40,367 nucleotides of DNA. Source: Diploschistes diacapsis. Taxonomy: Eukaryota. The translations under genes and the position numbers were made by a program. The stretch is from assembly GCA_023645945.1 (NCBI GenBank), contig JALAIB010000050.1:1-40367 (forward strand). Direction: 5' to 3'. Numbering within the stretch: position 1 is the stretch's first letter; the number at the start of each line of letters is the position of its first letter. Below are positions 15,677 through 40,367 of the stretch, in pieces. The notes under the pieces were generated by a model. That model saw nothing but the letters and a program-made list of their open reading frames with translations. It was not told the DNA's origin and ran no database searches.

Positions 15677-16581
15677 TTCTTTCTTATTACGTATGCATTC
15701 CGATAGAAAAGTCTACAGCACCCATCCTGCATGCTTTCCTGAGTCTGTTCCTGCTTGCTACGTAGTCACATCACGTATTGCTGGTTGCGTCTTGCTTATC
15801 CGAATGTTGAGCATTGCCTGTAGCATCACAATGACTGATATCTGGCTTGCTTCCATTCCTTGTAGTTCTGAATTTTGAAGTTACTACTTGCGGAACACCA
15901 ATACGAGCCACTAGTACAATCGTACAGTAATGTGCTAGTACTTTGTACCTGTTTACGGGGCATTGTCCAGCTGTTAGCTCGCCCCAACTACCTTCCTGGG
16001 GAGATAAAAAGCAAAAAGCAGGGATTCCCCCAAGGGACATGCCAATCGGGGACCTTGACTGGTAAACTTACCCGATTGGCTGCAAGCCAGACCACCAGCT
16101 GAAATAATTCCAAGGGGCTAGTAATCATGAAGATGAGAATAGAATTCCCCTTGGGCCACGCCGATAGAGTCCTGATATTAGAAACGATGTCCAACGTGTA
16201 CATTGAGTGTCCACTTCCACCAAATATAATTGAAAGATCCGACAGTTGTCAGTAATGAAGTCTCTATTCTAGGAGGCCGTTGCAGCAGTTGCCCCGTGCA
16301 ATCACAAGGAACAACGTAACAGCAGACAGACAGCCTTGCTGAGCCCAGCCGTTTAGGACGAATCCCGAAACCCAGGCCATTGCAGATCTTTCCCTCTCTC
16401 CTCCTGATCAAGTTTTACGAGATTTCATACCATCACCGTCGACTTCTTTTTTTCCCCTTTGTTCAATCAACAACAATCATTCCTGTGTTGGATTTTCTCC
16501 GAGTCCTCAACTCCCAGCACTCAGTTTTTGGCTCTTTCACGGCTTCGTCACTGGCATGAGCCTTGGCACCTGCTCCTCAAG

Positions 16582-16606
16582 TCCCGACCGATCCCGACCG
16601 ATCCCG
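16582..16606 (+). repeat. 10-bp tandem repeat x2.5 (TCCCGACCGA)
   Basis: TCCCGACCGA TCCCGACCGA TCCCG read directly from the sequence. Confidence 0.8.
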
Positions 16607-16931
16607 CAACCCCTCGGACTCGACAGCGCAATCACGACTTCCATCTGGTCTCTTCTACAACATCGACTCATTGAATAAAAGTGCCTACTTTCAAACCGCC
16701 TTACGGGCTATTCTTAGCAGCTCTCGGGGGTCGAGCGAGAATCAACTCGTAAGACTCTATTACTGAAGCTCCCTTGAGGAGCACCCAACCGCCAAAATTC
16801 AGCACCACGCGTCCAAAGCATCCCTTCTGGGAAGTCAGCCTTTCGACGGTTCATATCAGAGGGCACCAGTCGGCTTCAGAGAGCGGCAAGGTTATGAGTC
16901 GGTGACACCGAGAGCACCGCAGAAAATCAGC

Positions 16932-18094
16932 ATGATGTACAAGCCAGATTCTCGCTGGACTTGGTCCTTTTTAGGCGTTGCGCTCGTGCAGGCTGTCATC
17001 GTTCTAGCCCTAGAAGCGTGAGCTCGTCTACTAATCTTTGTGATAATGACTGATGAATTTCTCCAGCTACGCATTAGCGATCTTCCAGATGGATGTCGAC
17101 AAAGGAGACTTGGATCAAGGCTATGATATCGCCAGTCAGCCATATACAAGGACCGTTCCGGTGATGGCGACTGTGTACCTGTTTGGCATGCTATACTTTT
17201 CTATACTGGTGTGGGACGCTCTTCGAATGAGGAACACAATTCAAATTATCGGCCTTTGCATAGCCAATCTCTGTCTGATGATATTCGGCGCCGCAGAACC
17301 GAAACAGGTTAATGATGCCATCACTCGATTGAAACTTGACAATGTCGACACCCTTTTGCCTGTCGAAACAGCAATCCCTTGCATCCTGTCCGTGGGCACA
17401 TTGATCATGTCGTTCATTGCGCGAAAGCTGTACAACGAATTCGCCTGGTCTATTTATAAGCACATTAGCGCGGATCTTCGCATGAAGAAGCGTTACATGA
17501 CCTATCAGGTATATACACGGTTTTTCTATTCCGGAACCCAGCTAACAGACATTAGATTTACATTGCTCTTATGAAGTTCGATTTCTACTTTTTCCTTGGA
17601 TTTGCCGTGCAACTCTTGATCGTGCTCAATCCTTCGCAGGATGTTGAGTTCTGGCTCACAGTCGCGGCTGTTCCAGTAGTCGTATTGATTCTCTTGATGT
17701 CAGGGTTCTGGGTCCGAAGAGAGAATCTAGTCGGCATGATAATTGTTATTGTAAGTCAAGTTATTGCTTCTTATAGCTCTCACTAATCATCACCCAGATC
17801 ATCTACGTTGCTGGTCTGGTTTATTACTTCTACAAGCTTGTTCGCATTTGGACTGGTGACAAGTTTACTCTATACCAGCCGATCAACAAGGAGTTGACCA
17901 TTTTTGCCATCTTTACCCTTCTCCTTATCCTAGGTACGATAGCCAACGCGATACAGTGTACCTTGAACTTTGGCAAGGGGTTAAGGCCCTATTTGATATC
18001 GAGAAGGGATGTCGGTGGCGATGAAAAGGCATACAATACCGAGCTGCCAAAACTTCCGCATAGTCAAGCTCCGATCCGCATGACGATCGATTAG
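16932..18094 (+). CDS. UPF0658-like multi-pass (Golgi) membrane protein, 339 aa from the first AUG; exons 16932-17017, 17067-17508, 17556-17750, 17798-18094
   Basis: Motifs DALRMRNTIQIIGLC, KLYNEFAWSIYKHISADLRMKKRYMTYQIYIALMKFDFYFFLGF, NFGKGLRPYL and C-terminal RMTID. Several hydrophobic segments. Three GT-AG introns; spliced length 1020 nt. Confidence 0.88.
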
Positions 18095-18555: not shown

Positions 18556-19974
18556 ATGATTAAGGCAATCTTCTATAGTAAATTTGACGTCCATGAAGGT
18601 TCATCATCCAAACTCAGTGGGCTTCTGGTCAAATGCAAAAGCTAACGTCGCTCAGGTCCCAAAGTGATCCATCAAGTCCCTAAGAACAGCATCACACCCG
18701 ATCTCACAGTTCCCACCACAAAACCTCTAGTTCACTTTCCATCCATCTCTCCCTTCATAATTCCCCGCCAAACCTTCTGTTTCCATTCTCTCACTCTTCT
18801 GTCCTCTTCCTACCGCATCCTCTCCCACCCAATCTGCATCTCCTCCCCTCGATACCCCCGAAACGAGTTTATCTTTTCCTTCTCTATAGTCCTCCATCAC
18901 CGCACCCCTTTCGGTCCCTATGCCTCTGTCTGTACGAAGCTGGCCACACTCTTTCAGCACCTCGAAGTCTCTTCCAGCTTTTTGTCCCGGGATGTCGCCA
19001 CCCCAGATACAGGCAAGATCTTTGCCTTGTGTGAGATACTGCTCGAAGACTTGAACAATTACTCAGAGGCAATGATCCCGATTGACGATGCGAATACGCT
19101 GAACATCAAGCTCTTCCCTTCGTACCCGCCGCCGCCACCATTGAGCCCGCAACAAGTGCCCCTTGCAACGGTCAACCTCGATGCACTCAAGGACGAGAGC
19201 TGGGACCTGACGATGCTAAGGATACTGCCGCATATTGACGGCATCAACTCATTGAAGCAGATCGCATACCGCGCAGATGCAGACTACAAGCTTGTGCGTA
19301 AGGCCGTGGAGCATCTGGTATACTACGGCTGCGTAATGCTGATGGACGTATGGAGCTTCGGGGCTTGCTATGCGCCGACGGAGGGAATAGGGCAGTTTGT
19401 GCAGAACCCGGAGATGCAGGAGGAGGGAAGAAGGTACCTGCTATTACCGGAGGCGCAGAAGGCGCTAAATGCTGTTGCTACGGGCAATAGCTCCAGCACG
19501 GGACAAAGTGGGGACGAGACTGTTGCAACAGACAAAGTCGAGAAGATTAGGGAGTATTTGGATGGAAGCGGCTTGGTTGAGCTCTACATGAGTCTACGAC
19601 AGGGACAGAGCCTGAGAAGCTGGTGCCTTGAGCATGCAGATGTTGTGACATCTTGCGTATTGGACGTCCGTCGATTCATTCATTTCGGCGTAGTCAAGGG
19701 CTTCCTGTACAGAGTTCACAAGTACGCTATTGCTATGGGAAAGCACGGTGGCACTACTGTCGATGAGCAGGATGAGAGCAATACCCTGGATGGAAGCGCA
19801 CTGGAAAACAGTCTGAAAAGGGGAAGGAGAGACACAAAGGGCAAGCCAGAGCTTGCAAAATACCTCGATGGCATGCATTGCTTTGATGAGATATGTACAG
19901 AGCTGGCGATCAGCGAAAAGGAGTTGTTAGCAAGGCTGAAGAGTTGGGGCGATGTCCAAGTCATTTATCGCTGA
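18556..19974 (+). CDS. NPR2: Nitrogen permease regulator 2 (SEACIT/GATOR1 subunit), 453 aa; exons 18556-18598, 18656-19974
   Basis: Motifs MIKAIFYSKFDVHEGPKVIHQVP, YPRNEFIFSF, ILLEDLNNYSEAMIPIDDANTLNIKLFP, WDLTMLRILPHIDGINS, DVRRFIHFGVVKGFLYRVHKY and LDGMHCFDEICTEL. Intron 18599-18655 with GCTAAC branch. Confidence 0.96.
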
Positions 19975-39249: not shown

Positions 39250-40367
39250 GTAGCACCTCTTCCATTTACACTGAACTCAACTTTCTAGGAATTTGATTCC
39301 GAATCAGCGTTAAGATAGAGTAATAAACCCTAATTTCTCTGTTCTTTTTGTGAGGACAGGTAATCTGAGTTTAATAACCTCTACAATCCACCGTATCCGC
39401 GTTCATACTTCTGAAATTTCGACGTTTTTAAAGGCGAGGATACAAATTCCTTAAGAATATAGGGTCTTATAATATACATTAATAAACTCTAACAAAAACC
39501 ACGAGGGCACGAAAAACGTTAATGAACAACTGGCCGTCGGTGTAGTAGCTATAGTGCTACTAGGGAGAGTCGCTTGTTCTTGCTGGGCTCGCTTGTCCCT
39601 GCCCTCGCTGGCGTCGCCTGTGACGCCATGGGACATGATGCTATTGGGCATCTACCCGCTTAGTAGCTACAATGGTAGCTATAAAGAGCTCGATGATAGC
39701 CATAACTTTTAGAATATATCTTTATTTCATAAATTAATTTAAATTAATATTAATAAATGATAGCAACGATTGGACGACTAATCCTAGAACAATTTGAGCT
39801 CCAGTAGCAAGTTTCTGTCTGTATCTAGTTCATGTATTGAACCAGAGTTCGAAGGAATTTCCCTTTTACCCCCTATCTACAGCTATCAGAGCCTGGCTCT
39901 GTACACTGCTTTGTCCTCCTTTCCTCTTTTTAACTAGGTTATAATCAAGTTCTAGTTATATGTGTCGACCCCGTCCTCGGTTAATTTACGGCTAATTTAA
40001 ATCTAATTTAAAGCTATTAACTATCATCTAATATCTCGGAAGGCACCTTTAATTAGGATTTCCTAGATCTATTATACCTGGAAGTATTAGATATCGAGAG
40101 TAAACTAGTTCATTAACCTAGCTTAAACCGGACCAGAGGACAGCTTTCTAGATTAACTATCTTAGAAAGAAGTATCCATATTAGAATTACTAACTAAAAA
40201 ACAACGAAATAACTTCATTCTAAGAACCTTACAACTACTGTATTATATATAAGCTGGAAACCAGTTCCGGGGTTCGAAAAATTATCTACCTATCTTTCAA
40301 TAAATCGTCCGTAATTACGAACATCCTTTATTAATAATTAAAAAACAATAAAAGTTTAATCGAAAAC
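39250..40367. repeat. AT-rich, TpA-enriched, stop-riddled sequence typical of RIP-mutated repeat DNA; continues beyond the window
   Basis: Visibly high AT content (e.g. ATAAATTAATTTAAATTAATATTAATAAAT), abundant TAG/TAA/CTA and no credible ORF. RIP indices were not computed. Confidence 0.6.

Follow-up and report, generated by a model that had tools for sequence, protein, structure and literature searches.

A putative AUU-initiated N-terminal extension, conserved across Pezizomycotina, in a UPF0658-family membrane protein gene of Diploschistes diacapsis

This report concerns a protein-coding gene in contig JALAIB010000050.1 of Diploschistes diacapsis (assembly GCA_023645945.1) and the codons that precede its conventional start. 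The window, by which we mean the whole stretch of DNA analysed, runs from position 1 to position 40,367 of the forward strand (40,367 nucleotides, nt), and all positions are counted along it. The gene belongs, to judge by its homologues, to the UPF0658 Golgi apparatus membrane protein family, and we propose that it encodes a multi-pass membrane protein that truly begins 45 codons before the conventional ATG (position 16932), with an ATT as the initiation codon. We put the probability of this reading, which is built on sequence comparison, at about 0.78. Comparison among orthologues shows that the extension is under protein-level selection and that its 5' edge has been held as a near-cognate or cognate start across Pezizomycotina, the identity of the codon changing repeatedly. 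From this pattern we infer that the ATT is used in this particular organism too. An earlier note, made from the letters of the window alone, had already pointed to an AUU-initiated extension here; the reading frame, ATT, context and peptide that it described were all confirmed letter by letter in the window sequence.

The start codon and the extension compared across orthologues

In the window, frame 0 is open from 16767 to 17021, across two consecutive ATG codons at 16932-16937. The ATT at 16797-16799 is flanked by ACCGCCAAA on its 5' side and by C on its 3' side, and the extension peptide read from it is (I)QHHASKASLLGSQPFDGSYQRAPVGFRERQGYESVTPRAPQKIS-MMYKPDSRWTWSF. None of the 10 codons between the upstream in-frame TGA and the ATT is near-cognate, making the ATT the first near-cognate codon of its frame. 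Taken alone, the open frame of 55 codons is weak evidence, as a frame of this length has a chance of about 7% ((61/64)^55) of being open; it is the comparison with orthologues that raises it above chance.

The comparison drew on 80 fungal orthologous DNA loci from metagenomes and metatranscriptomes. The first transmembrane helix was placed on the plus strand by tblastn in 73 of the 80 loci (74 with the window), as against 45 of 80 for a regular-expression anchor. The upstream peptides of these 74 rows, 66 of them distinct, were aligned with MAFFT, and 58, among them that of the window, have a residue where the window has its ATT; we call this position the start column. Seven loci were left out for lack of a plus-strand match (L029, L035, L041, L043, L065, L075 and L076), and five of the eight distinct peptides without a start-column residue end at a contig edge (L002, L025, L034, L063 and L080). 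The pairs L015/L017 and L026/L027 are split by an intron and stand outside the 58 rows; they were recovered as rows with ATG.

What occupies the start column? ATT is found in 29 of the 58 rows, CTG in 10, GTG in five, ATA in four, ACG and ATG in three each, AAG in two, and TTG and TAC in one each. Thus 57 of the 58 codons are ATG or differ from it by one base, though they span Ile, Leu, Val, Thr, Lys and Met. This choice departs from the codon usage of the open reading frames (ORFs) of the same loci. There, CTG and TTG together make up 38.7% of Leu codons, GTG 23.4% of Val codons and ACG 21.7% of Thr codons; the start column has them in 11 of 11, five of five and three of three cases, respectively. 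ATC provides 58% of the Ile codons in these ORFs and none of the 33 in the start column (all three Ile codons are near-cognate), and conserved Ile columns in the protein body are mostly ATC. The start column ranks first of 68 columns for near-cognate content, and none of 375 columns of coding sequence (CDS) mixes several amino acids while using near-cognate codons only.

The codons of the start column are interlinked via ATG by single-base steps, which fits the occasional lineages that have ATG itself (L006, L008, L074, L015/L017, L026/L027, and the Leotiomycete and Sarea proteins). A tree was built from the 24 full-length rows after removal of their first 12 residues; it shows at least eight changes of start-codon state and at least three origins of GTG. 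In 12 of 54 rows, including the window, no near-cognate codon precedes the start column within the frame. A Penicillium-like genomic locus (L056) has ATT at this position.

The nucleotides before the start column carry a signal of their own. Over 53 distinct contexts, information stays at background from -30 to -9, and positions -8 to -1 then give CCGCCAAA; 46 contexts have C at -4, and 48 have a purine at -3. Conservation is best at -4 and -7, which in a coding stretch would be third positions of codons; this points to a nucleotide (initiation) signal and not to coding. Amino-acid conservation has its edge at the same place: it is at most 0.30 upstream, rises at the T/A/K just before the start, and ten residues in reaches 0.86 (R), 0.95 (S), 0.91 (L) and 0.95 (L).

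Downstream of this edge the extension behaves as protein. A search with the upstream frame joined to exon 1 retrieved P0001, with 68% identity over PFDGSY..GFRERQGYESV..MYKPDS.WTWSF, and the same tail was found in a further 28 sequences from several classes. The extended homologues share ..H-E-S-R-A-S-L-L-G-G...G-G-Y-H-x-R-E-G.. with the window, which includes two conserved motifs (Table 1). The two Leu columns of motif 1 freely use CTC, CTT, CTA, TTG, CTG and TTA (five or six codons), which points to selection on the amino acid. In motif 2, an alignment of 30 sequences shows hardly any variation at R40 and G42 (numbered along the window fragment), and the nearly invariant Arg uses all six of its codons (CGC 17, CGT 10, CGA 10, AGA 8, CGG 7, AGG 2).

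By the Nei-Gojobori method, the proportion of nonsynonymous differences (pN) is below that of synonymous differences (pS) in 1361 of 1370 pairs; the protein-guided alignment behind this count favours low pN. In pairs with the window, pS is 0.61-0.97 (near saturation) and pN 0.36-0.67, from which it follows that protein constraint has acted on the window's frame during most of the time that it has been separate. All 58 aligned rows keep the frame despite extension lengths that range from 22 to 83 codons, and frames +1 and +2 hold stops in 40 of 57 and 35 of 57 rows.

An AlphaFold2 model of P0001 (32 aligned sequences) has eight long helices between residues 53 and 344, followed by a C-terminus of low confidence. 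Its residues 1-36 have a predicted local distance difference test score (pLDDT) below 50, and means over ten-residue blocks are at most 55 up to residue 50. The tail is thus probably disordered and carries the two short conserved motifs.

Of what the earlier note had expected from orthologous leaders, a conserved frame and purifying selection were both found, in all 58 rows and in nearly all pairs, and the AUU or AUG that it looked for at the equivalent position turned out to be a near-cognate codon or ATG in 57 of the 58 rows. Its tyrosine-based sorting motif YESV (YxxV) did not hold up: Tyr is present in 14 of the 58 rows, with Leu in 24 and Phe in three, and the residues that follow are not conserved. 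The extension itself is present in this gene as described; it is not, however, peculiar to it, being ancestral to the whole family in Pezizomycotina.

The leader, the downstream ATG and other readings

Upstream of the start column, an in-frame stop is met after 4-151 codons (median 21.5) and after only 4 codons in six rows, for example L055, L028 and L022. Direct translation confirmed this short distance in L055 and L022 and, in L013, the frame bounded by the stop. In 56 of the 58 rows the codons from the stop to the start column include no in-frame ATG; L039 and L074 are the exceptions. Twenty-four of the 58 rows have no intron anywhere between the start column and the ..RM.ID at the C-terminus; these are best read as spliced messenger RNA (mRNA), because the window and other genomic loci have an intron after the first helix. 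A non-AUG codon stands at the start column in 22 of these 24. The leaders upstream of the start column in 23 mRNA-like contigs (105-710 nt) hold eight ATGs in about 10,000 nt in total, and 18 of them have none. In the window, 16256-16931 (676 nt) has only two ATGs, at 16556 and 16894, and pyrimidine-rich tracts at about 16390-16470; this region looks like a long ATG-poor leader of the kind seen in the orthologous mRNA-like contigs.

One candidate intron in this leader was considered and judged unlikely. Positions 16749-16802 on the plus strand (GTAAGA..CAG, 54 nt) have no CTAAY branch site, unlike the three introns of the gene; their removal would delete the conserved context and the ATT and join a frame without ATG, and the 24 mRNA-like orthologues without introns retain the homologous segment. 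Frame 0 has a further open stretch at 16560-16763 (68 codons, no ATG), where no conservation was found; we take this as chance.

These data bear on whether the extension could be translated from elsewhere, either from an unseen upstream ATG exon spliced into frame 0 or from another near-cognate such as the CTG at 16827. The additional open frame at 16560-16763 and the fact that excision of the 54 nt would keep the frame both speak for a spliced exon, as do relatives that have an upstream ATG, at -5 codons in the Lecanoromycete proteins P0002 and P0020 and further still in P0066 and P0051; and CTG is usually a stronger near-cognate start than ATT. The open frame in question, however, has no ATG, the candidate intron has the defects just given, and in the 22 mRNA-like orthologues the frame ahead of the non-AUG codon runs back to a stop without an ATG, so that no spliced ATG exon exists there. 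The column of CTG 16827, for its part, is an ordinary Leu column (CTC 18, CTG 17, CTA 7, TTG 6, TTA 4, CTT 3), and a start there would lose the conserved R/K-x-S. We therefore think an origin elsewhere very improbable.

The Met column of the MY.PN motif is ATG in 44 of the 58 rows, an in-frame ATG precedes the first helix in 57 of 57 rows, and the last such ATG has A at -3 in 45 of the 57. Out-of-frame ATGs number 19 in 7749 nt of extension (0.25 per 100 nt) as against 38 in 3105 nt of control CDS (1.22 per 100 nt), and so are about five-fold rarer. ATG-poor leaders and extensions followed by a conserved in-frame ATG are what selection for scanning to a second start would produce. A short, tail-less isoform from ATG 16932, as proposed in the earlier note, would accordingly be a plausible second product, on our indirect inference from these counts.

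A clade of nine loci (L022, L038, L044, L045, L050, L051, L053, L072 and L073) has no MY.PN Met before the first helix (..KFEFLSSKW.., ..KLFSSEFLASKW..); its members have CTG or GTG at the start column and in-frame Mets at varying positions in the linker. Stronger near-cognate codons may thus go with loss of the conserved second start in this clade.

A weak start in strong context with a conserved ATG downstream is also the layout of known translational control elements, and leaders free of ATG with extensions poor in it show scanning to be under selection. Initiation at the ATT might then serve mainly to tune the flow of ribosomes to ATG 16932, the ATT being an in-frame decoy start and the tail functionless. 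A decoy need not be in frame, yet every row keeps the frame through its insertions and deletions; the motifs are conserved as amino acids with free synonymous change; and several lineages (the ATG loci given above and the Leotiomycete proteins) have swapped the codon for ATG, making the tail constitutive. A pure decoy is accordingly the reading to which we give least credence.

How has the extension fared in annotation? P0001 has 959 homologues at E<=1e-10. Among the best 120 of these, 86 are annotated from the MY.PN Met, 18 are extended and begin with M, nine are extended without a Met, two are intermediate and five truncated; the suspicion that standard annotation misses the extension was thus well founded for most of these models. 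The extended models without Met include four from Penicillium that are flagged 'partial' (P0043, P0061, P0101 and P0105) and start about 30 codons upstream of the conserved K-I. Since these models are flagged as partial and start without a Met, annotators evidently noticed the open frame but found no ATG. In L015/L017 and L026/L027 the ATG start lies further upstream and an intron falls right after the codons for M-Y-K, between the extension and the first helix; with such a structure annotation could easily lose exon 1.

An initial Met in a model is not always an ATG. That of P0001 was rejected as evidence for ATG: P0118, from the same kind of source, begins MDPSY where contig L013 reads LDPSY, and from this mismatch the Mets of assembly-derived models can be CTG, TTG or GTG starts set by a prokaryote-style gene caller. 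Among 150 cluster representatives, a scan for the motif gave six matches, about four of them real; it was uninformative, since most models start at the downstream Met.

Several observations weigh against initiation at the ATT or temper the comparison. ATT is a weak start, and its +4 position is C, not G. A downstream hairpin that would aid a weak start was not detected: positions 16797-16880 of the window fold no better than their shuffles (z = +0.82, 161 of 200 as good). The upstream ORF at 16556-16678, if transcribed, could intercept ribosomes or modulate their supply to the ATT, and one out-of-frame ATG, at 16894, does lie between the ATT and the main ATG. Ile is also present at the start column in P0002 and P0020, whose Met start is five codons upstream, so that an ATT at this column need not itself be the start. 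The MY.PN Met could be conserved as a residue rather than as a start. Some assignments to the start column are soft: L062 (TTG) is on a long branch and has no S-L-L motif; four codons upstream of the AAG in L024 and L032 stands an ACG in CCACC context that is the better candidate; and L039 (TAC) is divergent, poorly aligned and has an upstream Met. One mRNA-like locus, L031, has a stop 25 codons before MYIPK and no recognisable extension in any frame within 200 nt upstream; it may represent a lineage that lost the tail. Finally, the rows are related by descent, and simple probabilities overstate their significance.

Is the extension, then, untranslated in this lineage, with ATG 16932 as the only start and 16767-16931 as a leader that looks ancestral or acts in regulation or at the RNA level? 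The frame has no in-frame ATG and its ATT is weak, 86 of the 120 database models start at the downstream Met, L031 suggests that a tail-less protein can be viable, and a frame of this length has the odds of chance given above. Against every orthologue, however, the window has diverged to the near-saturated pS values reported above, and its ATT, the whole of the ACCGCCAAA context, the reading frame and the two motifs are nevertheless intact; a leader without coding constraint would have lost these over such a divergence. The fold shows no notable RNA structure, and orthologues with an extension clearly selected as protein also lack an ATG as a rule. We consider an untranslated extension unlikely.

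If initiation at the ATT is accepted, events at this gene would run as follows. Scanning 40S subunits would meet the ATT at 16797 in strong context (ACCGCCAAA-AUU), and a fraction of them would initiate there with initiator Met-tRNA. Their product would have a disordered tail, probably cytosolic, with the motifs R/K-x-S-L-L-G-G and G-[FY]-x-x-R-[EQ]-G. Subunits that passed the weak ATT would scan on through an almost ATG-free stretch and start at ATG 16932, giving the tail-less isoform. As to what the tail does, the explanation we favour is that it would be a regulatory or trafficking module built on short linear motifs.

A bolder version, possible but one that we lean against, is that the tail is the ancestral N-terminus of the family and that selection has kept its start weak over hundreds of millions of years because the trait it acts on is the proportion of the tailed to the tail-less form. 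The gene would then be a translational rheostat whose start codon moves among ATT, ATA, CTG, GTG and ACG, and occasionally ATG. Looser start-codon stringency (through the eIF1/eIF5 balance or stress signalling) would raise the share of tailed protein, and the motifs R-x-S-L-L-G-G and G-G-Y-H-x-R-E-G would control trafficking or turnover of a Golgi membrane protein.

Gene model, family and neighbouring features

The gene as read from the window has four exons and three introns of 47-49 nt, each with a CTAAY branch site; the features of the locus are collected in Table 1. The spliced product aligns end to end with P0001, its nearest relative, at 64% identity, and with the homologues compared at 46-64% identity over 338-394 residues (about 50% with named orthologues). 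Source names among the homologues include 'UPF0658 Golgi apparatus membrane protein' (P0085) and 'Golgi apparatus membrane, partial' (P0013). The UPF0658-like assignment made earlier for this gene therefore agrees both with the names given by the sources and with the full-length alignment, and it is on this homology to named members that we place the gene in the family. 'Golgi' is here a label taken from source names for a putative localisation.

The exon pieces of the window reached the cut-off of no family in Pfam. Among relatives, DUF7789 (PF25044) is marginal, P0061 reaching its cut-off with 25.6 bits against 25. A Foldseek search of the protein body against the PDB gave nothing at E<=0.001, the best match having E 0.09. 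We know of no molecular function for the UPF0658/DUF7789 family.

Table 1. Features of the UPF0658-family locus in the window
Feature	Position	Strand	Basis or remark
Upstream ORF, 40 codons, ATG..TAA, in a frame other than that of the main ORF	16556..16678	+	119 nt upstream of ATT
In-frame TGA closing frame 0 upstream	16764..16766	+	Limits start of an unspliced extension to 16767 or later
Initiation context ACC GCC AAA, A at -3, C at -4	16788..16796	+	Precedes ATT
ATT, proposed near-cognate initiation codon of the extended protein	16797..16799	+	Homologous column in 58 rows
Extension, 45 codons counting ATT, up to ATG 16932	16797..16931	+	Translation and orthologue alignment
Conserved motif 1, K-A-S-L-L-G-S (family R-x-S-L-L-G-G)	16815..16835	+	Conservation R 0.86, S 0.95, L 0.91, L 0.95, G 0.65, G 0.70
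Conserved motif 2, G-F-R-E-R-Q-G-Y (family G-G-[YF]-H-x-R-E-G)	16872..16895	+	Alignment
Out-of-frame mini-ORF ATG AGT CGG TGA (MSR-stop) inside the extension	16894..16905	+	Ends 27 nt before ATG 16932
Conventional exon 1, ATG ATG start, then first transmembrane helix	16932..17017	+	ORFs and translation
Exon 2, after intron 17018-17066 (GTGAGC..CTAAT..CAG)	17067..17508	+	Sequence reading
Exon 3, after intron 17509-17555 (GTATAT..CTAAC..TAG)	17556..17750	+	Sequence reading and alignment to P0001
Exon 4, after intron 17751-17797 (GTAAGT..CTAAT..CAG), ends ..RMTID then TAG	17798..18094	+	Alignment to P0001

The protein ends in the pentapeptide R-M-T-I-D (18077-18094). R-M-x-I-D is nearly invariant in the family, with R, I and D at 90% or more; it closes a part of the model with low confidence and may serve in sorting or binding at the C-terminus.

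The downstream neighbour (18646-19974) is a homologue of NPR2, a subunit of GATOR1 (Pfam PF06218, E 5e-83). Its best named relatives are 36-58% identical in partial alignments and come from several ascomycete classes. Because this neighbour is without a close relative, the window would seem to come from a sparsely sampled lineage of Pezizomycotina.

Meaning, and comparison with known systems

If the reading given here is right, the gene model is corrected in this organism and, by extension, in most annotated Pezizomycotina genomes, and a membrane protein joins the very few fungal genes whose non-AUG start is deeply conserved. It would be an unusually clean case, with one start position, ATG-free leaders and at least eight codon switches within one base of ATG, and so a good natural test bed for the evolution of start-codon strength and for start-site predictors. 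The two short conserved motifs in a disordered tail would also be experimental handles on a family of no known function.

Conserved non-AUG N-terminal extensions of human genes were reportedly described by Ivanov et al. in 2011. The likeness to them lies in the comparative signature, upstream protein conservation that ends at a near-cognate codon in good context; the kingdom and the genes are different.

The closest parallel is a fungal one. In the parts of Ivanov et al. 2017 (PMC5487733) that treat cpc-1, the homologue of CPC1/GCN4, an extension with a conserved AUU is described in 64 of 100 species of Pezizomycotina, and in Agaricomycetes a near-cognate codon stays at the conserved position but may be AUU, UUG, AUA or CUG. 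Like the window's family, cpc-1 has there an open frame upstream of the annotated AUG without an in-frame AUG, and near-cognates in near-optimal context; the conserved codons are AUU, CUG or ACG, AUU being preferred over AUC and AUA. The cpc-1 extension is likewise conserved as protein, with a ratio of nonsynonymous to synonymous substitution rates (dN/dS) of 0.35 according to the same passages. The differences are also plain. As described in that source, cpc-1 has several near-cognates, a leader of more than 700 nt and two regulatory upstream ORFs that the extension bypasses, and it encodes a soluble basic leucine zipper (bZIP) factor, whereas the window's family has a single start position, orthologue leaders that are largely free of ATG and a multi-pass membrane protein, with a start codon of at least seven kinds, ATG included.

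A second fungal parallel is peroxisomal 6-phosphogluconate dehydrogenase, for which PMC7214817 reports a functional peptide encoded in the annotated 5' untranslated region, a non-AUG start and two isoforms. That extension, as reported there, is a recognised type 2 peroxisomal targeting signal (PTS2), whereas the two motifs of the window match no signal that we can name.

For the UPF0658 family itself, no report of a non-AUG start was found in the literature, the UPF0658 passages of the sources consulted being unrelated to translation. Descriptions of the UPF0658/DUF7789 family, and most database entries, are without the tail; the window adds it to a body that is homologous over its full length. 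The signature, as far as comparison of sequences can tell, matches the type of near-cognate-initiated extension known from cpc-1, and its occurrence in the UPF0658 family would be a new case of that type.

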